Shown here one piece after another: positions 38,938 to 55,886 of a stretch of DNA of 64,000 nt (position 1 is the stretch's first letter; every line of letters starts with the position of its first letter). A program made the translations under genes and the position numbers. The notes beneath the pieces were generated by a model, which searched no databases, had not been told where the DNA came from, and saw nothing but the letters and a program-made list of their open reading frames with translations. The stretch is taken from assembly GCF_048403405.1 (NCBI RefSeq), contig NZ_CP183129.1; one strand, 5' to 3'. Origin of the DNA: Escherichia coli (GTDB lineage Bacteria; Pseudomonadota; Gammaproteobacteria; Enterobacterales; Enterobacteriaceae).

Positions 38938-39150
38938 TTAGCGGCAGCCTTCTTCTGTATGCAGCAAGGCAAAAAGTTCTGTAACTCCATTGTTATTAAC
39001 CGCACTGGTTACTAACACGTTGTGCGCTCCAGCTTCCCGTAACCAACATTTCACCAAAGATATTTGTTCCATGCTGGCTAAATCTGCTTTGGTTACTACT
39101 CCAATGACCGGGTGATTCATGGCCCGGTAGGGCGTTTTTACCTCTAATTC
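38938..39150 (-). pseudogene. yoeF: YoeF-like C-terminal fragment of an EutP/PduV-family GTPase
   Basis: C-terminal about 70 aa of ORF 38938..39294 (VIGVVTKADL ... GVTELFALL); upstream part of that ORF is antisense to an IS66-like remnant. Confidence 0.4.
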
Positions 39151-39158
39151 CTGCTTCA

Positions 39159-39320
39159 GCGCTGAGATTCCTGCTTGTTGCCGGAAAAGCAGGCACCTGC
39201 CGTCTGAACGGTATCGATCCGGAAGCGTATCTGCGCCATATTCTGAGCATACTGCCGGAATGGCCCTCCAACCGTGTTGACGAACTCCTGCCATGGAACG
39301 TAGTTCTCACCAATAAATAA
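39159..39320 (+). mobile_element. IS66-family transposase C-terminal remnant
   Basis: Plus-strand translation GTCRLNGIDPEAYLRHILSILPEWPSNRVDELLPWNVVLTNK* resembles IS66 TnpC C-terminus; no intact element. Confidence 0.4.
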
Positions 39321-39734
39321 GCGTCAATATGGTGCTCCGTTGACGCTTACTTTAATCCGTTTTCTGAGCTTAGATTTTTCTGTTCCTACCCAGACCGTGG
39401 ATTTGGAATTCATTTTTTGTCAGGTCAATGCTAATCGTTAAAACGGCCATAACGCACCTCCACTGGAAGGTTTATCAGTAATATCCTACCGTTGCTTCAT
39501 GGTCGGGGCGTCCATTCCATTATTATCGGTTTTCCTTTCTGTTTATAAATGAAAACGCCAGCTGTATTCAGGCTGGCGTCAGGGGAAATGAAGCCTGTTG
39601 AGTGAGATTCACCGGTTCTGGTGCAGAAGCTGCAGATGGCGCAGGGTAAGGACATCTTCTCTTGCCTGCTTAATACAGGACAACAGTGCTGTTTCTGTGG
39701 TTAATGGCACTATACCCTGCATCACTGCATTGTC

Positions 39735-39929
39735 TTACAGCAACTGGTGAGGGCTGGCATAAGTTGCCGGTGTTTCGGTAGAGTCACGGTCATCCACCAC
39801 GCGGAGTGAATAACCGTTTTCAGCGGCCTTATTAATCAGTTCAGTGATATTAACACCATCAATGTCAACGACAATGTGCCCCATATCCAGCGCCTGTACG
39901 TTAACGCTGTCGGCTTCCAGTGTCATCAT
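39735..39929 (-). CDS. yeeW: Prophage protein YeeW
   Basis: 64 aa; start overlaps the cbtA reading-frame end (ATGA); CP4-44 synteny. Confidence 0.65.
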   Translation of the reverse strand: MMTLEADSVNVQALDMGHIVVDIDGVNITELINKAAENGYSLRVVDDRDSTETPATYASPHQLL

Positions 39930-40299
39930 TTCGCCTCCGGATACTTACCCAGGGTAATGTTATTTACCGTTCTGTAATTGTCGCGGGTCATCAGGCCGGT
40001 CGCCCTGCGAGCCCGGAGGATATCGATGCTGTTTATTAACTGAGAGCGGGTACAGGCGCTGAATCCCGGCTGGTCGGTAGCACCAGCGCGTATTTTTCCA
40101 CGAGAAAGTTCACCGCATCACACAGTGAAATGCCTGCCTCAATATGCTGCTCAATCACACGTTCATCGGCAAAAGGTGTGTCATTCTGTGTGAGGCCATA
40201 GTGCTGGTCCAGCAGTCGGGACAGCAGTATCTGCCAGATTTCAACAGGAGACGGGCGAGAACTGGCCGCCTGCCCGGGTAATACAGGTAATGTTTTCAT
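39926..40299 (-). pseudogene. cbtA: CbtA (YeeV) toxin gene, frameshifted
   Basis: N-terminal 72 aa match CbtA; intact ORF ends after 87 aa, while the remainder of the toxin is readable in another frame down to the yeeW start. Confidence 0.65.
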
Positions 40300-40387: not shown

Positions 40388-40756
40388 TTAATTTTTCATT
40401 TCGGGCGTCGGATAAACAGCCAGATAAACGTAACCACAACTGCTGAGGGTATCGGCTTTGCAGGTCAGCCCTTTTGCATACAGCGTGACGGTATGCTGAT
40501 GGCGGGGATTCAGTTCACCGCTGGTGAGCATGAGTTCCAGTTGTTTCATCAGCAGCGGAAAGGCCTGGTCCAGGTGGTACGCATCTGCATCGCTGAACAG
40601 GCCTCTGATACCGGCGCGGTCGGCAAGGTAATGCAGGCGGTTACCCTCCTGCACCAGACGTGCCCCGAAACAGGGCGTCACGGTGCAGGGCAGCCCCCAC
40701 CAGGGGCGGTCGTGATTGTCGTCGGGAAGTGTTGTCCCGGGGAGTGTGTCTGACAC
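40388..40756 (-). CDS. cbeA: CbeA (YeeU) antitoxin
   Basis: 122 aa; recalled CbeA sequence; directly upstream of cbtA. Confidence 0.85.
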   Translation of the reverse strand: MSDTLPGTTLPDDNHDRPWWGLPCTVTPCFGARLVQEGNRLHYLADRAGIRGLFSDADAYHLDQAFPLLMKQLELMLTSGELNPRHQHTVTLYAKGLTCKADTLSSCGYVYLAVYPTPEMKN

Positions 40757-40829: not shown

Positions 40830-41051
40830 TCAGTTCAGGGTGACGCTCATCAGCCGGACATACGGACCAAAACTGTCCTTACGGCGTTCGGCAAACACGG
40901 CCAGCACACCGGGAATATCCTGCACTTCACGACCGGTATAAACCTCAGCACTGCCGTGCCAGCGGTATTTGCCGGTACAGAACGAAAAAAGACGGGATGC
41001 CGGATGCTGACGGTGAATACGCATGGCTTCGCCACGGGTGATAATTTTCAT
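40830..41051 (-). CDS. yeeT: Prophage protein YeeT (DUF987)
   Basis: 73 aa; conserved position between radC-like gene and cbeA. Confidence 0.75.
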   Translation of the reverse strand: MKIITRGEAMRIHRQHPASRLFSFCTGKYRWHGSAEVYTGREVQDIPGVLAVFAERRKDSFGPYVRLMSVTLN

Positions 41052-41113: not shown

Positions 41114-41605
41114 TTAAAGCAGACCATGTTCGGCAAAGGAGAAAACCTGGTTGCCACCGACTATCAGATGGTCCGGCACCCGGATATCCACCAGGCCCAG
41201 TGCCTGTACCAGACGTTCCGTGATAAGGCAGTCTGCCTTGCTGGGTGTGACTTCACCGGACGGGTGATTGTGTGCCAGCACCACGGCAGCGGCATTGTGA
41301 TACAGGGCGCGTTTAATCACTTCCCGGGGATGGACTTCCGTGCGGTTGATGGTGCCGGTGAAGAGGGTTTCACCGGCAATCAGCTGATTCTGGTTATTCA
41401 GATACAGCACCCGGAATTCTTCACGCTCCAGTCCCGCCATGTTCAGAATCAGCCATTCCCGTGCCGCACGGGTGGAGGTGAAGGGCACGCCGGGTTCATG
41501 AAGATGGCGGTCCAGGGTTTTCAGGGCCCGCAGAATGAGGCTGCGCTCGCCGGGCGTCATCTCTCCTGGCAGAAAGGAAAGTTGTTGCATTGTGCTTCTC
41601 TCCAT
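41114..41605 (-). CDS. yeeS: RadC-like JAB-domain protein (YeeS/YfjY family)
   Basis: JAMM motif region (HNHPSGEVTPSKADCLIT); likely true start at MQQLSFLPGE. Confidence 0.8.
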   Translation of the reverse strand: MERSTMQQLSFLPGEMTPGERSLILRALKTLDRHLHEPGVPFTSTRAAREWLILNMAGLEREEFRVLYLNNQNQLIAGETLFTGTINRTEVHPREVIKRALYHNAAAVVLAHNHPSGEVTPSKADCLITERLVQALGLVDIRVPDHLIVGGNQVFSFAEHGLL

Positions 41606-42085
41606 TCAGTCGATGATGCGCATAATGGCGCTGCATTCCGGATGCTGCAGGGCGTAATCCCGCAGCCGGTAATAATGGACCGTCATGGCATAACACTCTG
41701 TACGACAGGCATGATGACTGTACGTCATCAGACAGGCAGCAATGCCGGCGGCTTCCGGGCTCATTTCAGCGCGGTTACCGTTCATGACATTGAACAGTAC
41801 CCATGTTTCGTCATCATCGTCATCCGGTTCGGGTACCATAAATGCCCCGCCGTTGTTCAGGGTGTACAGATTCCAGATACCACCGCAGTAGTCTTCGCAC
41901 AGACGGTCCATCCAGCCGAAGACACGGGGCTCCAGGGTCACCCACTGTGGAATGAGGCCAAAATGCTGCGGCCAGAAGCTGATGCGCTGTTCATCAGGGA
42001 CGAGGCTGGCAACCAACTGAGGCGGATTATTCTCTGGTGTTGTAGCTGAATAAATTGTGGGGGTATTCTGAGAAACGGTTTTCAT
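41606..42085 (-). CDS. Antirestriction protein (YfjX/YafX, KlcA/ArdB-like)
   Basis: 159 aa; acidic DDDDDE stretch; conserved prophage position upstream of radC-like gene. Confidence 0.7.
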   Translation of the reverse strand: MKTVSQNTPTIYSATTPENNPPQLVASLVPDEQRISFWPQHFGLIPQWVTLEPRVFGWMDRLCEDYCGGIWNLYTLNNGGAFMVPEPDDDDDETWVLFNVMNGNRAEMSPEAAGIAACLMTYSHHACRTECYAMTVHYYRLRDYALQHPECSAIMRIID

Positions 42086-42166: not shown

Positions 42167-42988
42167 TCAGCGCAGGCTCTCCAGCATCGTTTCTGCCATC
42201 ACCCACAATGCGCGATTGAGCTTAATGTCGGTATCAATGCTGTGAATGGCCCGGGTATGGATACGTTTTCCTCTGGCACTGCGACCGGAAATCCCGCCTT
42301 TCAGCATATTCTCCTGGATGGTCTGATATGCGCTCCACAGGTCCTTACCGTAATCCTCCCGGCGTCGCGGCGTCAGAATGTCGGCGGTGGTGACGGGCTG
42401 ATGTTCGTCACCATAACGGTAAGTCAGTGCCGCCTGTGCCAGCGCCTGGCGTGCCGGTGGCGGCAGGACCAGCGACTGCATGGCATCACGCTTCTCCTCT
42501 ATCCGGTCAAACACGCCCACCACCTCGTAAGCCCCTTCGATAACTTTCTCCACTACATTTCCCCGGTGTGGAACACGCACTTCCCCCAGAGACTGGCCAC
42601 AGACGCACCCGTTCTGGCAGACGAACCTGAAGTAACCCGGCAGCATCTGGTAGCTGGAGGTACCGTCATGAGAGTTGAGCAGAATAATTTCAGGGACATG
42701 TTCTCCGTTTATCTCTCCGGCCCGCCGCAGACGCAGCATGTGTTTTGTGTATCCCCGGCGGCCCGGGTCGCGCACACGGGTCTGGCAGGCGAAGAACGGC
42801 TGAAAGCCTTCCCGCTGCAGATTTTCCAGGACGGTAATGGTGGGAATGTACGCATACCGTTCACTGCGGGAGATGTGCCGGTCTTCCCCAAAAATACTGG
42901 GTACATGGCGTATCAGTTCTTCATGTGTCAGCGGACGGTCACGGCGTATCTGGTTTGCAGCATAACCAAAACGACTGGCTAATCGCAT
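42167..42988 (-). CDS. DUF932-family prophage protein (YfjQ/YafZ-like)
   Basis: 273 aa; recalled family and conserved position in CP4-type elements. Confidence 0.6.
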   Translation of the reverse strand: MRLASRFGYAANQIRRDRPLTHEELIRHVPSIFGEDRHISRSERYAYIPTITVLENLQREGFQPFFACQTRVRDPGRRGYTKHMLRLRRAGEINGEHVPEIILLNSHDGTSSYQMLPGYFRFVCQNGCVCGQSLGEVRVPHRGNVVEKVIEGAYEVVGVFDRIEEKRDAMQSLVLPPPARQALAQAALTYRYGDEHQPVTTADILTPRRREDYGKDLWSAYQTIQENMLKGGISGRSARGKRIHTRAIHSIDTDIKLNRALWVMAETMLESLR

Positions 42989-44453: not shown

Positions 44454-45524
44454 TTATTTAATCCGGGCCATCGCGTTTCTCAGTGCCAAATCTGCCTCTT
44501 CCGTTATATCCAGGCTTTTCTGCAATACCGCCTCTGACCGGGTCAGTGCCTGACGTGCTGCCAGCGGTTTCCGGATATGCTCCATCGCCAGCATCGTGTC
44601 TTCATAGCCCTGCTGACGCCAGGCGTCGGTATGTGCCGATGTAAAACTGAGCAGACCGCCGCTGTTGCCACCATCACCTGCATATTTCAGCCTTTTCCGG
44701 GGACGGATCTCAAGGATTGTGGTGTCCGGAAAAGCCTGGCGATCCCATAAAGAACCGTCACTCAGATGCGTCACAATCACCATATTGCATCCGGCATCGA
44801 CCAGAGGCGTCACAGGGGTATTTCCCTGCATATTTCGCCATCCTCCCATACCACCATCACCGAACATTGTCCCCTGAACCTCACGGGGACGGAACAGCAG
44901 GGGCAGCGCGGCTGACGCAAGCAGAGCCTCTTTCTGCTGTCCGCGGGGCAGGCTCTGGATATGCTGAAAAACGGCGTTTTTCGTGGTTCCGACACCCAGT
45001 TCAGCACGAATGCAGTCAATAATATCCTGCATGCCCCCTTCTGTGGGGTACAGCGACACATACAGCGGTAGCCCGTCTGCCAGAGCATCAGTATCAAGAT
45101 AATGATCCATCAGCGCTGTCAGGGGCTCATCTGACAACAACGGCTGAGCCATCAGATTGTCAAACCCGTTGATTGTCGATATATGGCGAAGAAGCGTCGT
45201 AAGCAGTGCTCCTGCACGTCCGGGGATCTGGCAGAGGTTCATTGCCTGGAACAATTTTTTCAGCAATGAAAAGTAAACCAATCTGTTTACCGACAGCACC
45301 TGATTATTCCCCAGATGATCCCAGAGCGCCTCCAGGCGTACGGCAGCTTCTGACAGATCGGTAGAGGCCGCGATAATGGCACCATTGAATGCGCCAATGC
45401 TGGCCCCTGAAACCATGCTGATCTGTGTACCACACTCTGCCAGTGCCTTAACCACTCCCGCCTGATAAGCGCCCACCGCCCCGCCACCGGACAGCACCAG
45501 CCCCGTTTTCATTTCTGTACTCAT
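44454..45524 (-). CDS. Patatin-like phospholipase
   Basis: 356 aa; oxyanion GGGAVGAYQAG, nucleophile GxSxG (GASIG), catalytic DGG (FGDGGMGG); start ATG overlaps upstream stop (ATGA). Confidence 0.8.
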   Translation of the reverse strand: MSTEMKTGLVLSGGGAVGAYQAGVVKALAECGTQISMVSGASIGAFNGAIIAASTDLSEAAVRLEALWDHLGNNQVLSVNRLVYFSLLKKLFQAMNLCQIPGRAGALLTTLLRHISTINGFDNLMAQPLLSDEPLTALMDHYLDTDALADGLPLYVSLYPTEGGMQDIIDCIRAELGVGTTKNAVFQHIQSLPRGQQKEALLASAALPLLFRPREVQGTMFGDGGMGGWRNMQGNTPVTPLVDAGCNMVIVTHLSDGSLWDRQAFPDTTILEIRPRKRLKYAGDGGNSGGLLSFTSAHTDAWRQQGYEDTMLAMEHIRKPLAARQALTRSEAVLQKSLDITEEADLALRNAMARIK

Positions 45525-46426
45525 GCAGCCCCCTTCTGAAATATTTCATCGACCATACTTTCAGAGAGGCGTTCTGCAGAGCAGAGGCGAGGCATGCGAA
45601 CCGGTAAGTGTTCTGCAGCCTGCGTGGTTGACCAGATCACCGGATGCTGCTCTTCACTGCACCAGTCTCCCAGCCAGTTAATCGCGTCATGCCACTCGTT
45701 ATCTGCCTGCTCCCGGCCCTGACCACCAAGCCAGTCCAGAGTGTTCAGACGCACGGTTGCACTACCGCCACTCTCCTGTGCCATCTGCGTTAATGCTTTA
45801 TGTCTGAGAATATCCAGTAGCTGGTTAACCTGGCCTGTTTCGCTCTGACGTATCACATCACCAAACGCGCCCCAGCGAAGCTCTTCAAGTGCCACATAAC
45901 AACGTCCGGCAGGGGAAAATGACGCATATCGCCCGGCGCTCCACCATGAGAATATCTGCTCAAGATGTAACTGCGCCCGCTGAACCTGGTCAACACGGTG
46001 GAGTTTTTCTTCAAGATGATTCAGTTTATGGTGAACCTGATCGGCCAGGGTGAGTAACTGCTCCCGCGTATCTGCGGAATAATGCGCCAGCCTGGCTGTA
46101 TCACTGACCAGTGAACTGACCCTGTCGTTTACCCGGGTAATCGCGTAGTTTGTGGTGGCAAGTGACGTTGTCATCTCCGTCAGCCAGCGCAGGGACGCCT
46201 CAACGCCCTGTGCAAGCGACGCATTGATGGCATTCTGCCGTGCAGCGCCTTCGCCGGTCAGCCCCTCTTTTAAACGCCGGAAGAACGTGCGCTCTCCGGC
46301 CGTGCGGATATGCTCCTGTGCAACATCGATTCCGTTTGCGAAATCAACCACAAATTTTTCAGGAAGACAGGTGAGTACCTGACATACCCGGTTATCAGCA
46401 ATTTGTTGAATAAATGGTGAAGTCAC
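45521..46426 (-). CDS. Hypothetical 301-aa alpha-helical protein coupled between the GTPase and the phospholipase
   Basis: GTG start overlaps stop of upstream gene, own stop overlaps patatin ATG; no recognised motif. Confidence 0.55.
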   Translation of the reverse strand: MTSPFIQQIADNRVCQVLTCLPEKFVVDFANGIDVAQEHIRTAGERTFFRRLKEGLTGEGAARQNAINASLAQGVEASLRWLTEMTTSLATTNYAITRVNDRVSSLVSDTARLAHYSADTREQLLTLADQVHHKLNHLEEKLHRVDQVQRAQLHLEQIFSWWSAGRYASFSPAGRCYVALEELRWGAFGDVIRQSETGQVNQLLDILRHKALTQMAQESGGSATVRLNTLDWLGGQGREQADNEWHDAINWLGDWCSEEQHPVIWSTTQAAEHLPVRMPRLCSAERLSESMVDEIFQKGAA

Positions 46427-48819
46427 AGCATTGTCTCCAGCTCTTCCCTCAGCGCCTTACTGTCAGTAATGAGCTCAGGAACCCTTTCATTTAATGCCTG
46501 AAGTCGCCCGGTAAGCCGTTCCTGCGCCTGCTGATCGCGTTTATGATCTTCAGAGCTCTGAATCAGCGTGTTACGCAGTTGTTCAACTTTCTCCCTGAAT
46601 GCGCAGAAAAAGGCATCGATTTCCTGGCGGACGGGCTGGTTAATATCCTGCTCAATGGATGCCTGCAGCTCCCCGAAATATGCCCGGGTCAGTGACATAA
46701 CTTCCTCTCTGACCTTGTTGATATTGATCACGCTGCGACTCACATCCTCGTCATAGTTTTCCCAGCCCAGGTCACTGGTGCCAAACCATCGACAAACGGT
46801 TCCCCATACGCCACTCTGCCGACGGCGACGGGTGACGGTCTCCGTTCTTTCCTCCATAAGCGCACTCAGATTTATTTTTACCGCGAGCCGGGTCTGTAAC
46901 TGGCTGACTGCCGGAAAACTGATTTTTACGGTAAAGCCCTCATCCTCCAGGCGGGCATTGATGCGACCGGCAATGTTTTCTGTGGCGTACAGGGCCGTGC
47001 CACGAAAACCTGTTTCAATCCCGCTGACGATTTTCTCCAGCTCAGGCCGGAACTGTGCTTCAGCCTCACGGTGCAGGCTGGTCACGGTCGATTCGATTTG
47101 CGTCATCAGTTCAAGGGCTTCCCTGCGATCACTGAATTTTATTTCGGGGCTGTCCGGGGCAAAATCTCGTTTCCTGTAATCCTCCCGGCCCTGGTTGTTG
47201 ATACCGGACCATTGAGAAATTTTCCCCCATAATCCGGACTGAGACCTTCGTTGTTCTGCGTCTTCTTCCTCCAGCATTTGCTGTTCTTTGCGTTTACCGC
47301 TTCTGAAATAGTCATTCAGCTCCTCTTCCAGTGAGGTGCAGACCCCCGTCAGTAATTCCCGGGTTTTAGTATCGATCTCCTCCATGGCCATTCTGACATC
47401 AGTGGTCATCTGCTCCTGACAGTCCGCGATTTCCCGGATATCCGCAAGCAGGCTGGTGATATGCGACTGCAGTGACTGAATGCTTTGCTGTAGCCCCTGA
47501 TGGCGTAACAACAGGTATTCACTGATATTTTCTGCATTCTGCATCAGTTTTGCGGCGGCAGAGTCAACCGCCAGTGCCGCAGCTCTGGAATGTGAGCTCT
47601 GTATGACTTCCGTTATCAGTTGATCGATAAGTGAGCCTTCCCACAGGTCTGTCGCCCCTTCAGTTGCCAGTTCACTGTCTTTACAGACGTATTCTTTTTT
47701 CATGCAACCGAAGGCACCTCTGATAAAATCATCGACCCAGGCTTCATCAACAGGAAGGGTTCCGTTTTTCCGTAACTCATGAAGCGCACGGTTAGCCAGG
47801 TATGCCTGGCGTGAGGATCCGGGATAAACGCGGGAGGCGGGCAGCACATCGCTGTTCAGCATTGCCGGAACTTTCTGGCGTACGGCATCTGCCCCATCGC
47901 CATTGCGGTCTTTCTCATCAAATTTATTGACCAGTACAAACAGGCGGCCGGCTGATACGTCAGCAATGGCATTAAGCTCTTTACGGACGTCTTCATCCGC
48001 TTTTGAGTTCATCTGGGTGTAATCCATCACAGCCAGAACCGCAGAGGCTTTCTGCAGTTGATCCCGCATCATCACTTCCATCTGCGGTTGTCCGGCCTCA
48101 TTAGGGCCGGGGGTATCCAGCAGTGTGAGTGTTCCCTGGCATGCATCCATCCCCACCAGATGGCTGAATTCCACGTCGATCACCGGCAGTTTCTGCACTT
48201 CTGCGTATTCATCAAAAGGAAATTCAGTCCCCATTGCCGCAGCAAGACGAACCAGATCGTTTAACGATGCCAGTCCGGTAAAGATTTCCTCCTCCCCGTG
48301 GTATTCATTTTTGAGCCAGCCATCATCCGTCAGAATATCCAGCAGTTCGCGGGTATCCCCGGTTTGCTGCAGGGTCTGTGCGACCTGCTGTCCTGCCGGG
48401 GTGGCGAGTTTTTCCTGCAGTGTGATTAATAAATTGCGGACAGGCTGAATATGTTCCAGATGGAGAACCGGCTCAGTTTTTCCGGGAACGTGGCGGATGA
48501 GCGTCGGTACAGAGGTCATGGGGCGGTTACGGTTAGGCAGAATTTCCTGCCCCACAATGGCGTTGATGGTGGTTGATTTGCCTGCTTTCATCGTGCCGAC
48601 AACAGCCAGCACCATCTCCCTGCGGGCGGTTTTGATTTGTTCGCCCTCCAGCTCCTCAATTCTTTTCAGTGCTTTCTGTTTATCAAAAAGCAGTCTGTTT
48701 TCGTTCTTACTGTCAGATAACACATCTGGCTCCTCAACCATTTGCCGGAGCAGATTAATGTTCAGTTGCAAAAGTCGGTCGGCTTCATCACAAAGCAGGG
48801 CGATGTTCTTTTCGTGCAT
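46423..48819 (-). CDS. Dynamin-like large GTPase (bacterial DLP)
   Basis: 798 aa; P-loop GTMKAGKST, DTPG, NKFD in the first 300 aa, then about 500 aa helical/coiled-coil-like region; RBS GGAAGG upstream of ATG. Confidence 0.75.
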   Translation of the reverse strand: MHEKNIALLCDEADRLLQLNINLLRQMVEEPDVLSDSKNENRLLFDKQKALKRIEELEGEQIKTARREMVLAVVGTMKAGKSTTINAIVGQEILPNRNRPMTSVPTLIRHVPGKTEPVLHLEHIQPVRNLLITLQEKLATPAGQQVAQTLQQTGDTRELLDILTDDGWLKNEYHGEEEIFTGLASLNDLVRLAAAMGTEFPFDEYAEVQKLPVIDVEFSHLVGMDACQGTLTLLDTPGPNEAGQPQMEVMMRDQLQKASAVLAVMDYTQMNSKADEDVRKELNAIADVSAGRLFVLVNKFDEKDRNGDGADAVRQKVPAMLNSDVLPASRVYPGSSRQAYLANRALHELRKNGTLPVDEAWVDDFIRGAFGCMKKEYVCKDSELATEGATDLWEGSLIDQLITEVIQSSHSRAAALAVDSAAAKLMQNAENISEYLLLRHQGLQQSIQSLQSHITSLLADIREIADCQEQMTTDVRMAMEEIDTKTRELLTGVCTSLEEELNDYFRSGKRKEQQMLEEEDAEQRRSQSGLWGKISQWSGINNQGREDYRKRDFAPDSPEIKFSDRREALELMTQIESTVTSLHREAEAQFRPELEKIVSGIETGFRGTALYATENIAGRINARLEDEGFTVKISFPAVSQLQTRLAVKINLSALMEERTETVTRRRRQSGVWGTVCRWFGTSDLGWENYDEDVSRSVININKVREEVMSLTRAYFGELQASIEQDINQPVRQEIDAFFCAFREKVEQLRNTLIQSSEDHKRDQQAQERLTGRLQALNERVPELITDSKALREELETML

Positions 48820-51156: not shown

Positions 51157-53071
51157 CTGCTTTTCTCACATTTGCAGATTTTAAAAAAGCAAACAAAAAC
51201 CTCCGTACATGATGTACAGAACAATCTACCAGGTAGTGGCGTCAGAAAACCTCCGGGCCGCCTGCACTTTCCGGAATGCGCCGGTTATGAAAAACCGGAA
51301 ATTCAGTCTCTGTTGTAAGATGTACCCTCTGATACTACGTTTTCTCTGTGTATTTAACTCACTGTATTTATTGTCTTTTTAAGCTTGACTGATATTCTCC
51401 GGTCATAGTGTGCCGGATATACATCCCGTAAACTTCTCATTTTTATATAAAAATACCTGCACTCTCTTCAGCGCATCTGTCTCCTTTAAGTAAAAAATGT
51501 TTTCACGTATTGCTGTAAATTCATTTTAAATCAGTATATTACCTTGATATTGCTGTCTCCTGGTTTGATGCGTAATCGTTCTGCCTTTCTGGATGATTCT
51601 GGTGCTTCCGGGTGCATTCTCCTCTGCACATGCAACAGTTCGTCATCGCCACGCTCCCAAAAAGCATATAAAAACGAATCGAATTTGATATTTTTTTCAA
51701 TCGTTTTTCATAGGAATTTCGTAGGGTATTCTCCGCTATAACCTCCATATTTGCTGTCTTTTTCTTCATAAATCGTATGCAATGTAGCCTGTCTGTCAAG
51801 ACCTCTTCTCTGCTGTTGAGGAGACGATCTCATTTTTGGTCTTTTCCGGGAGAGAGGCTGTCAGATGAGCGAGCCGGATTTACTGTCAGAGGTACACCCC
51901 GTAGCAGACCTGTGCTCCCATTTCCGCGATCCGGAACCAACAACACCCTACGGTTAATACCATTTGAAGCGTCAGGTACTGCAGGAAGTTCCCCCCTGCG
52001 CGGACATCGGTTCCTGCCGACATCTCACAATACGGCCAGACTGTCATGCAGTAACACCCGCATGCGGTCTGCGGTTTTAAGCGCACTCTCCCGTTTTCAG
52101 TGCACCGATAATGCGTCATAGTAAGTCTGGGGGAAGTTACGGAATGCCTGTTAAGTGGTGCCGTGGGTGGAGACAGCTTACTTTTCTACAGCAACTGCAG
52201 TCATTCAGGATGATCAGGAGATATTCTGTCAATGTCACGATCCTGCCATTTTCGTACCCGCTAAGATACTTCCGTTACTGATGCTGTCCGCTTTTCACCA
52301 TTTCATCCTCACTGACAGGCGTTGCGTTTTGGGTCATCACCACAGCTTTACGTTTCTCTTTTAACCGGTAACGCTCTCCTTTGATATTCAGCGTGGTTGA
52401 GTGATGCAGCAGTCAATCCAGGAGCGCTGTTGTCCGGCAACCACCATATCAACTTCTTCCCGGGTGTGGCGGAGAGGTGGTATCCTGGCTGAGTTTCGAA
52501 GCGAACCGTTCTTTTTGACGGGCGCATTTTACGTCCGGGCTGAATGTAGTAACGCGGCATGGAACGTCGGCCCGTATACCATTGCCTTAATCTCCGCAAA
52601 GATAACCTCGTCATTCCGGACATTCTCTGCCAGGCATATGTCGATGTAATCCATAAACGATTTCAGCTTACCCCTTTTGTGGCCAGTCTTTCTGGCTGGC
52701 GGTTCAGGGGATGTTTTCTGGTTATCGTGTACCACAAAGCAGGGATATTGCCCCGATAGTCACATTTCAGATTGATCGCGGTCTGAAGATGTGGCACTGA
52801 GGTAACGTGCTGGTGTCACTGGTATTGCTGAAGTTATGGTTTTTCGGGGTCAGGTGAGCCTGTTGTGTGTATGCTTTTTGTTCAGGTCAGAGGGGGACTG
52901 TGTGGACAGCGGCTTTTGTCTCCGGGCATTCACGCCTGAACGATGAATGCGATTTTCAGCAATATTTGTCTTTGTGACACTCTCTGGTTGAGAAGCTAAT
53001 GCGCGCCCCTGTTTCCACAGAGAATGTACTGCACCCATTTTGTTGGACGATGAAATGGAATAGCCCCTGAT

Positions 53072-53593
53072 ATGTCAAAGCCAAAATACCCTTTTGAAAA
53101 GCGCCTTGAAGTCGTGAATCACTACTTCACTACTGATGATGGTTACAGGATCATCTCGGCACGTTTTGGTGTCCCCCGAACCCAGGTCAGGACATGGGTT
53201 GCCCTCTATGAAAAACATGGAGAAAAAGGTTTAATTCCCAAACCTAAAGGTGTTAGTGCTGATCCAGAGTTGCGTATTAAGGTCGTGAAAGCTGTGATCG
53301 AGCAGCACATGTCCCTTAATCAGGCTGCTGCTCACTTTATGCTTGCTGGTAGTGGTTCTGTAGCCAGGTGGCTGAAGGTTTATGAAGAGCGCGGAGAAGC
53401 TGGTTTACGCGCGCTCAAGATTGGCACCAAAAGAAACATTGCAATATCAGTTGATCCAGAAAAAGCGGCATCAGCATTGGAGCTGTCAAAAGACCGACGT
53501 ATTGAGGATCTTGAAAGGCAAGTTCGATTTCTTGAAACGCGGCTTATGTATCTAAAAAAGCTGAAAGCCTTAGCTCATCCCACGAAAAAGTGA
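53072..53593 (+). CDS. insJ: IS150 OrfA
   Basis: 173 aa; recalled InsJ sequence (MSKPKYPFEKRLEVVNHYFTTDDGYRII). Confidence 0.9.
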   Translation: MSKPKYPFEKRLEVVNHYFTTDDGYRIISARFGVPRTQVRTWVALYEKHGEKGLIPKPKGVSADPELRIKVVKAVIEQHMSLNQAAAHFMLAGSGSVARWLKVYEERGEAGLRALKIGTKRNIAISVDPEKAASALELSKDRRIEDLERQVRFLETRLMYLKKLKALAHPTKK

Positions 53594-54441
53594 AAGTACT
53601 CAACGAGCTAAGGCAGTTTTATCCTCTTGATGAGCTTCTCAGGGCTGCGGAGATACCGCGCAGTACGTTTTATTACCATCTAAAGGCTCTCAGCAAGCCT
53701 GACAAGTATGCGGACGTTAAAAAGCGTATTGGTGAGATTTATCACGAGAATAGAGGCCGATACGGATACCGTAGGGTAACGCTGTCTCTTCATCGAGAAG
53801 GGAAACAGATTAACCATAAAGCTGTTCAGCGCCTGATGGGAACCCTCTCACTTAAAGCAGCGATTAAGGTCAAGCGATACCGCTCTTACAGAGGAGAGGT
53901 AGGGCAAACCGCCCCTAATGTTCTCCAAAGAGATTTCAAGGCTACGCGGCCAAACGAGAAGTGGGTTACCGATGTTACTGAATTTGCAGTCAATGGGCGC
54001 AAGCTGTATTTGTCTCCAGTAATAGATCTCTTCAACAACGAAGTTATTTCTTACAGCCTTTCGGAAAGACCAGTGATGAACATGGTTGAGAATATGCTCG
54101 ATCAGGCATTCAAAAAGCTTAATCCTCACGAGCATCCTGTTCTGCACTCTGACCAGGGATGGCAGTATCGTATGAGAAAATATCAAAATATTCTTAAAGA
54201 ACATGGTATTAAACAAAGCATGTCCAGAAAAGGCAATTGTCTGGATAATGCTGTGGTGGAGTGTTTCTTTGGAACCTTAAAGTCGGAGTGTTTTTATCTT
54301 GATGAGTTCAGTAATATAAGCGAACTGAAGGATGCTGTTACGGAATATATTGAATACTACAACAGCAGAAGAATTAGCCTGAAATTAAAAAGTCTGACTC
54401 CAATTGAATATCGGAATCAGACCTATATGCCTCGTGTTTAA
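53590..54441 (+). CDS. insK: IS150 OrfB transposase (DDE)
   Basis: 283 aa; recalled InsK sequence; overlaps insJ stop. Confidence 0.9.
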
Positions 54442-54983
54442 CTGTCCAACTTTTTGGGGTCAGTACAGAATGAGGCTTGCCATCAGCCGAAACATCAGTA
54501 TTCCACGCCATACAGACGGCGCCTGACCATGTGCTGATGCAGGTAAAATGTTTCACTACAACTGTTCGGGTTGCTATGCAACGAAACAGCGATTCTCACG
54601 ATCTTTAACTGCAACGTTTTTCCGCCTGAAAGCTGACTGCCTCCTGCTGAGGTGGGAGGCTATGATTCAGTGCGTTTATAGTCTCCGGGGTATGCATGTA
54701 CCGGAGCATACCATTTCTGGTGGATAACAAGCCGGCACATTCAGACTGCAGTGAAGATGGAGGCACCTGGTTGTGAAGAACGTTTCTGCACGTGGCTGCT
54801 TCGCATCATCAATGGTATTCATACCCGCTCAGAAATGACCGGGTGCTGAAGCCCTCCGTTATCGCGCAGTATAATGACGTATATGATCTGTGGACGAGTG
54901 AGCGGCGTGCCTGATGTACGCCGCTATTACTGTATTTTACCACAGGGCTGGTTTTCTGCTGCCAGCCCTGTGGTTCTCAGACA

Positions 54984-55601
54984 TCAACTGTGAGCGGCAT
55001 CAACCGATGTACGGTATGCCATAAGCACGTACTGATCCATCAGATTTGTCAGTGGTTCACTCTGACCCTGACGTGCAATGATCCATTGCTCCAGATCTTT
55101 TTCTGATTTGTGTTTCAGGTTTTTCGTCCAGTCGTCAAGGCTGTTTCCGGTCATTAAGTCAAGCCAGCAGAGCCAGACCAGTTTGAGACGTAACTCCGTG
55201 CCGCCAAACTGACGGAAGAGGCTGATCAGTTTGTTTGCCAGAGAATGTTGCTTCAGGCGCTCACATTCAGACAGCAGGATCCCTTCCAGCATCGGATGAT
55301 GAACCAGCAGGTGTTCGCTGGTGCATAAATTCACCACCAGATCATCATCCAGGGACGGGGAGCTCCGTTTGTCCGGACCATAAATCAGCCGGTGCAGACT
55401 CTGGGGAACGATGGCAATCTCCGGTTTTTCGCCATTGAATGACACCCACCCGGGCGTCAGATTATGGAAATAGTAGATATTCGGATGACACACGCCCCAT
55501 GATACGGCGTGCCGGGTGAAGCCGGTCAGCCATTTCTGGTAGTTTTCATGGAGCAGCTCGTAACGGGTCTGATACTGTTGTTTCATTTTCATATTCCTCA
55601 C
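54984..55601 (-). CDS. Hypothetical prophage protein
   Basis: 205-aa ORF downstream of the alpA-like gene on the same strand; no family assigned. Confidence 0.4.
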   Translation of the reverse strand: MRNMKMKQQYQTRYELLHENYQKWLTGFTRHAVSWGVCHPNIYYFHNLTPGWVSFNGEKPEIAIVPQSLHRLIYGPDKRSSPSLDDDLVVNLCTSEHLLVHHPMLEGILLSECERLKQHSLANKLISLFRQFGGTELRLKLVWLCWLDLMTGNSLDDWTKNLKHKSEKDLEQWIIARQGQSEPLTNLMDQYVLMAYRTSVDAAHS

Positions 55602-55679
55602 GGGGGATAACAGGCAGCAGAGCGCCGCCGGCAGGCCGGAGATTGCGTCTGCTGTGGGCGAAGGGTTAGTGGTTAAAAA

Positions 55680-55886
55680 TTACGGACGGGACTGTGCAAT
55701 ACGCGCCTGCAGCCAGGCTTCCACTTCACTTTTCAGCCAGCGGGAGCTGCGCCCCATTTTGATGGGCGCAGGAAAGCCCCCATCTTTGATGAGTTTGTCA
55801 AACCACTTATCGGTTAGGCCGGTCAGTTGAGTGATAAACGCCATGTCGACCATCTGGTCATCCATCAGCGAAACTGGGGTAGCCAT
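55680..55886 (-). CDS. alpA: AlpA-family prophage transcriptional regulator
   Basis: C-terminal HTH region (FITQLTGLTDKWFDKLIKDGGFPAPIKMGRSSRWLKSEVEAWL) typical of Phage_AlpA; start trimmed to MATPV. Confidence 0.6.
   Translation of the reverse strand: MATPVSLMDDQMVDMAFITQLTGLTDKWFDKLIKDGGFPAPIKMGRSSRWLKSEVEAWLQARIAQSRP

Follow-up and report, generated by a model that had tools for sequence, protein, structure and literature searches.

A widespread codon-74 deletion in the type IV toxin gene cbtA of Escherichia coli, beside an intact cbeA antitoxin gene

CbtA and CbeA (YeeV and YeeU) form a type IV toxin-antitoxin module, and the work done on this pair rests on E. coli K-12, where it is carried by the CP4-44 island. 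The toxin is a dual inhibitor of the bacterial cytoskeleton that acts on FtsZ and on MreB. Substitutions of R15 and F65 separately abolish the binding of MreB and FtsZ, respectively (PMC5624674), and a docking model places contacts with MreB at L88, I89, N113 and K119 (PMC8828653). The K-12 antitoxin acts on the targets and not on the toxin, by stabilizing and bundling the assemblies of FtsZ and MreB (literature quoted in PMC5624674), and other FtsZ inhibitors are also counteracted by CbeA (PMC5624674). CbeA, YafW and YfjZ each neutralize all three K-12 toxins, and the loss of all three antitoxins leaves growth unaffected (PMC5371832).

The locus considered here lies in a stretch of 64,000 nucleotides of E. 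coli DNA, which is called the window below. It is a CbtA/CbeA type IV module of the K-12 type, complete in its architecture except for the toxin allele, which is probably null or crippled. The window is collinear with the genome of E. coli SMS-3-5 (99.7-99.98% identity). It runs from the end of the colanic-acid cluster through the O-antigen cluster, gnd, ugd, wzzB, the his operon, yeeZ, yeeY, plaP, tsuAB, sbcB, dacD, sbmC, yeeA and tmaR, and then enters a CP4-44-type island that is decayed and rich in IS elements and pseudogenes. The distance from cbtA to wzzB and the O-antigen cluster is about 19 kb. Within the island, cbeA precedes cbtA on the same strand, 88 nt upstream, and the two genes are embedded in the string of genes and gene remnants listed in Table 1, where the coordinates of the island debris are those of the SMS-3-5 annotation shifted by 29999. 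All 13 orthologous loci that were retrieved from complete genomes by DNA similarity contain the DUF957, IS66 and EutP remnants. In each of the nine carriers of the deletion that were opened, the order was EutP/PduV fragment, IS66-type fragment, DUF957 fragment, yeeW, cbtA, cbeA, yeeT and yeeS.

Table 1. Features of the cbtA/cbeA locus (positions in the window)
Feature	Position	Strand	Remarks
EutP/PduV fragment	38938..39120	-	island-end debris downstream of yeeW
IS66-type transposase fragment	39183..39320	+	island-end debris downstream of yeeW
DUF957 fragment	39609..39701	-	island-end debris downstream of yeeW
yeeW (DUF5983), 64 aa, intact	39735..39929	-	ATG overlaps original cbtA stop (ATGA); own GGAGG Shine-Dalgarno
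Out-of-frame cbtA remainder, T75 to K124 and stop	39926..40078	-	not translated from the cbtA start now
Truncated cbtA frame	40036..40299	-	73 native CbtA residues (L38Q), 14 out-of-frame residues and TAA; 87 aa
1-nt deletion site	between 40079 and 40080	+	C absent on this strand; alignments with K-12, Nissle, BE311, C41, SK1144 and others
cbeA (yeeU) antitoxin, 122 aa, intact	40388..40756	-	Pfam PF06154
yeeT (DUF987)	40830..41051	-	upstream, same gene string; phrog_14887
yeeS (RadC/JAB domain)	41114..41590	-	upstream, same gene string; SMS-3-5 annotation and ORF
Antirestriction-protein gene	41606..42085	-	upstream island gene, usual predecessor of the toxin-antitoxin module
DUF932 gene	42167..42988	-	upstream island gene, usual predecessor of the toxin-antitoxin module

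Several other features of the window were recorded in passing. On the minus strand, at about 44454-48819, genes of the dynamin and RdcB families and a patatin-like phospholipase gene are adjacent, with a gene of a GTPase family further upstream. Decay is heavy at about 52275-61320, where a copy of IS150, an ISL3 transposase with an internal stop and fragments of an AAA-ATPase and of a gamma-glutamyltransferase are found, and where an IS66 fragment closes the far end of the decayed island. At the other side, at about 14270-16660, the O-antigen cluster of SMS-3-5 has an oligosaccharide flippase gene annotated without its C-terminus, with IS1A about 1 kb downstream, and the window aligns to SMS-3-5 there without large gaps. 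Finally, a paralogous locus of O157:H7 has a DUF5983 protein of 163 aa with a full DUF957 gene next to it, where the window has the 64-aa yeeW and a DUF957 remnant. A programmed frameshift and a family mis-flagged as 'spurious' have been suggested for this region downstream of cbtA (yeeW/DUF957; PMC13294457, 2026).

The cbtA gene itself occupies positions 40299 to 39926 of the minus strand, of which the list of open reading frames gives an 87-aa frame at 40299..40036. From M1 to V73 its product is in register with K-12 CbtA and identical to it except for L38Q. The window was aligned with K-12, Nissle 1917, BE311, C41, SK1144 and eight orthologous loci fetched later. The base that is absent is the G at cbtA nucleotide 221, in the middle of codon R74 (CGT), and the plus strand accordingly reads ggtagcac in the window and ggtaCgcac in K-12. 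Because of this loss, the native part of the product comprises 73 residues and is extended by 14 out-of-frame residues, up to a TAA stop at 40036-40038. Apart from the deletion, the nucleotide change T113A, which leads to L38Q, is the sole difference from K-12 cbtA. Instead of a full-length family profile in an uninterrupted reading frame of about 124 aa, we found a match of Pfam PF06755 (CbtA_toxin) to residues 1-73 of an 87-aa ORF, corresponding to positions 1-73 of the 112 of the model. The frame is broken relative to intact orthologues of the same locus, and its 3' part remains readable in another frame (40078..39926), ending in the ATGA overlap with the yeeW start. When the missing base was restored in silico, a 124-aa protein identical to a public CbtA sequence was obtained. 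NCBIfam gave no matches for any of the proteins tested here.

An earlier, sequence-only reading of this DNA had proposed that cbtA is frameshifted by a single-base deletion near 40078 (gtgcTACCGACC versus gtgcGTACCGACC), that unrelated residues follow the native part and that the remainder of the toxin can be read in another frame down to the yeeW start. The alignment with K-12 and 12 other orthologous loci bears this out and fixes the site at the junction given in Table 1. The same reading had the frame end after 87 aa, which is right, and had only the first 72 residues match CbtA, where in fact 73 do. One further consequence concerns yeeW. Ribosomes that translate the intact allele terminate on the yeeW start (ATGA), and those on the frameshifted allele stop 107 nt upstream of it, so that any translational coupling between cbtA and yeeW would be lost.

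The antitoxin gene had been described as intact in the earlier reading, and this holds for all 122 residues. CbeA matches Pfam PF06154 nearly over its full length (positions 1-100 of 101, E = 5e-53) and departs from K-12 CbeA at a single residue, with G for D at position 108. Wherever cbeA varies, the window has the nucleotides of SMS-3-5, whose protein is WP_001285585.1. The very same CbeA protein is also found beside an intact toxin, in strains BE311 and C41.

The deletion is not confined to this record. An exact 60-mer spanning it is present in 1503 of 5426 complete E. coli genomes (~28%), and the intact 61-mer, in which the base is restored, in 1940 of them (~36%); about four in ten strains having the CP4-44-type cbtA locus thus have a broken toxin. 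At least 40 complete genomes have the 374-nt segment of the window at 100% identity, among them the type strain ATCC 11775, APEC O1 and SMS-3-5, and the deletion is also carried by O157:H7, O145:H28, O111:H8 and the ETEC strain TW10598. The exact 87-aa protein of the window occurs on at least 1000 public contigs (e.g., ABJ01408.1, ACB17009.1), as does each of the three main 87-aa protein haplotypes, and such products usually bear the public name 'toxin of the YeeV-YeeU toxin-antitoxin system'. In seven carrier genomes the gene is labelled 'cbtA, pseudo, frameshifted' by PGAP/RefSeq. Public annotation already flags the lesion, there are thousands of deposits of the truncated ORF, and our description of it carries little weight as a discovery. 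The deletion is a species-wide polymorphism found in several pathotypes and reference strains, and not a private, recent lesion.

Some of the history of this allele can be read from its variants. The allele carried by O157 and O145 differs from K-12 cbtA by the deletion alone, and R74 is invariant across 42 CbtA homologues, which makes a deletion from an intact gene the parsimonious direction of the change. The carriers comprise three haplotypes (K-12-like, L38Q and A12T), and intact 124-aa versions with L38Q or with A12T are also found at the same locus. For the deletion and A12T, and likewise for the deletion and L38Q, all four combinations have been seen. This implies either recombination within about 100-190 nt or recurrent mutation, the latter being the formal alternative. 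Several intact alleles have synonymous differences clustered at nucleotides 201 to 300, in a mosaic pattern. The locus is frameshifted in APEC O1 and intact in UTI89 (NC_007946.1, 2217424-2217798), two strains that we take to be both ST95; they differ in island content upstream of cbtA. In 2009 Touchon et al. reportedly identified the rfb region as one of two in the E. coli chromosome where recombination is most intense. We read the frameshift allele as having a single origin and as having been spread by recombination, and the cbtA deletion would then be best viewed as an old, recombining polymorphism near the O-antigen cluster.

Two ideas about this polymorphism were set aside. In the first 14 loci, a SNP located 15 nt past the yeeW stop showed complete linkage with the deletion, as if there were one clean deletion haplotype; the linkage was broken by further loci, which ruled out this picture. 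In addition, a weak 6-bp inverted repeat (GCTGGT...ACCAGC), followed by a T-rich run, is present at window positions 40069-40087 of the plus strand, with the deletion in its loop; a terminator scan picked it up as terminator-like on the antisense strand of cbtA. A mutational hot spot at this hairpin was considered and dropped, the folding energy being no better than that of shuffled sequence for either allele.

Could cbtA be functional in spite of its interrupted frame? The earlier reading had pointed out that the missing base might be an assembly error, and as a general possibility a sequencing or assembly error always exists. It deserves practically no credence here: the site of the lesion is not homopolymeric, and the identical 60-mer stands in 1503 complete-genome records from many laboratories, among them the early references APEC O1 and SMS-3-5 and the type strain. 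The occurrence of the same allele in about 1500 independently sequenced complete genomes puts the deletion far beyond chance or error. It is scarcely less improbable, by a narrow step, that the full-length toxin is still made through programmed ribosomal frameshifting or transcriptional slippage. Most of the C-terminus would be regained by a -1 shift at any of the 14 codons that separate the lesion from the TAA, and an A5 run, at nucleotides 203-207, lies 14 nt upstream of the deletion site. However, that run, the longest in cbtA, is far below the lengths known for useful slippage, and the stretch where the frame changes has no in-frame X XXY YYZ heptamer, the sole XXXYYYZ string being at gene nucleotide 22. 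There is no match to an Rfam element, and the local hairpin is no better than in shuffled sequence. Nor is there a usable downstream start in the frame of the C-terminal part of cbtA, where the sole start codon, an ATG at nucleotide 309, would yield a peptide of 21 aa.

A more serious question is whether the 87-aa product retains part of the activity. It is unlikely, though conceivable, that this product is a stable and partly active toxin that binds FtsZ and blocks division, with its action on MreB lost or weakened; the locus would then be a modified pair, hence the preservation of cbeA. R15 and F65, the determinants of MreB and FtsZ binding (PMC5624674), are both in the truncated product. 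Moreover, the kept part covers the residues predicted with confidence: in the AlphaFold model of full-length CbtA (mean pLDDT 62.9), only residues ~12-72 are confident, forming three helices with pLDDT 74-89, and residues 79-124 are below 50; a search for a solved structure of CbtA found none. The allele is also very common, and no further disruption was met in the nine carriers examined. C-terminal deletions of YeeV are said to have still elongated cells in the hands of Tan, Awano and Inouye in 2011. Against these points, half of the invariant residues of the family are gone, 20 of its 40 invariant columns (42 homologues, 66-94% identity) falling within residues 74-124; among them are R74, D76, G79 and the run from S91 to R98 (SIDILRARR). 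The MreB contacts of the docking model (PMC8828653) lie in the lost part as well. The loss of 41% of a small protein and the addition of a 14-residue tail would probably make the product unstable. Besides, conserved or functional positions have changed among the carriers. In the nine examined, the further changes in cbtA were two non-synonymous ones (A12T and L38Q) and no synonymous one; L38Q affects a position that is at least 90% conserved. Public 87-aa variants have R15H, at the MreB determinant, D40N, at the invariant D40, and R47C. Taken together, and small as the numbers are, L38Q, A12T, D40N, R15H and R47C look like relaxed constraint. Intact alleles were fetched by exact protein identity, so that their synonymous excess is partly an artefact of ascertainment and was not used as a test of selection. 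One carrier, XJ5.2, has lost cbeA (W20*) with no other visible change in the region examined, which also speaks against a modified pair. Still less probable is the more elaborate proposal that the 87-aa fragment is an expressed, FtsZ-only division inhibitor and that the intact and truncated alleles (~36% and ~28%) form an on/off polymorphism that is maintained in balance and reshuffled by recombination next to the O-antigen hot spot, with CbeA kept as the partner. The allele frequency of about 28% fits neutrality combined with recombination and biased sampling, which is no proof of neutrality. On the whole, the sequence comparisons argue that the 87-aa product is probably non-functional as a dual inhibitor of FtsZ and MreB.

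Two published data sets touch on the phenotypes of cbtA. A filamentation screen in UTI89 (PMC6206680) was considered as a test of the truncated allele and proved uninformative: the UTI89 allele is intact, and the hit of the screen is a different paralogue. In a genome-wide association study on microcin J25 in E. coli, one cbtA sequence variant, which the text leaves unspecified, was the gene-content feature most strongly associated with resistance (PMC10926693).

The earlier reading had taken an inactivated toxin next to a retained antitoxin as a sign that the pair is decaying. As a general statement this is fair, in view of the RefSeq pseudogene flag and of strain XJ5.2, where W20* (nucleotide 59) in cbeA occurs together with the toxin frameshift. 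The death of the toxin with retention of the antitoxin is not the sole route, however. In GCA_019282935.1, cbeA carries Q64* (nucleotide 190) beside an intact L38Q toxin, and in GCA_974492455.1 the toxin is intact and cbeA is absent, with unrelated genes in its place. The existence of several routes of decay at this locus points to a weak constraint on either gene, which makes it a sufficient explanation that the retained CbeA may merely not have decayed yet. Alternatively, it may protect against paralogous toxins. Genomes have a median of 2 copies of this gene family and up to 11, with 4 in SMS-3-5, the closest relative of the window, and the cross-neutralization of toxins by antitoxins of the paralogous families (PMC5371832) is a possible reason for an orphan CbeA to persist. 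A case in point is a second locus of O157:H7, in strain NE 1169-1 (NZ_CP038324.1, 133906-136966; positions 1377-2005 of this segment), which has an intact 124-aa toxin (WP_000854712.1) and an antitoxin of the YeeU family truncated by ISEc31. It mirrors the CP4-44 locus of O157:H7, where the toxin is frameshifted and CbeA intact; in O157:H7, the one lineage checked in this respect, the arrangement would fit cross-protection.

The explanation that we favour, and which seems likely as a whole, is that a CP4-44-type cbtA (yeeV) was inactivated by a real, inherited deletion in codon 74. Arising in a K-12-like intact cbtA, the deletion would have removed residues 74-124 from the toxin, and with them, most likely, the full dual activity, that is, the inhibition of FtsZ plus that of MreB. 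Descent and short-tract recombination would then have carried the allele, located next to the O-antigen cluster, through the species, and it is now one of the two common states of the cbtA locus. The antitoxin gene could have been kept for either of two reasons, or for both: it probably costs nothing, because CbeA acts through the bundling of FtsZ and MreB and not by binding to the toxin, and it may still guard against paralogous toxins of the CbtA family encoded elsewhere in the genome.

The toxin studied in K-12 is broken in O157:H7 and in the E. coli type strain. Since the broken allele is common, phenotypes ascribed to 'cbtA' need not transfer to the strains that carry it. The locus also offers a modest illustration of how a chromosomal type IV module decays, which may be by the toxin first, by the antitoxin first or by complementary losses between paralogous loci, and the pattern of decay gives no sign of addiction. 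Should the truncated product turn out to be active, it would be a naturally occurring separation-of-function form of this dual inhibitor of the cytoskeleton.

Among described systems, the closest is the CP4-44 module of K-12, which is orthologous to that of the window, nearly identical in DNA and similarly endowed with a full-length CbeA and with R15 and F65. Its neighbours are also those of the window: yeeS, yeeT, cbeA, cbtA, yeeW, the DUF957, IS66 and EutP remnants, tmaR (yeeX), yeeA and sbmC. The window differs in lacking the base of codon 74, with a product of 73 + 14 aa instead of 124 aa, and in L38Q. The wider island also differs from that of K-12: it contains the genes of the dynamin and RdcB families and the patatin-like gene, and the annotation of the stretch examined does not include flu. 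YkfI/YafW of CP4-6, YpjF/YfjZ of CP4-57 and the second locus of O157:H7 belong to the same toxin and antitoxin families as CbtA/CbeA, but lie in chromosomal islands different from that of the window module. A laboratory analogue of CbtA without its C-terminal part is provided by the YeeV truncations attributed to Tan, Awano and Inouye; these constructs were reportedly over-expressed and, unlike the 87-aa product, did not end in 14 out-of-frame residues. The allele of the window is shared by the genomes flagged in RefSeq, ATCC 11775, APEC O1, SMS-3-5, O157:H7, O145:H28, O111:H8 and TW10598, which have the same deletion. The O157 and O145 carriers are without L38Q, and those of O111, TW10598 and XJ5.2 have A12T instead; otherwise, nothing substantial separates them from the window.
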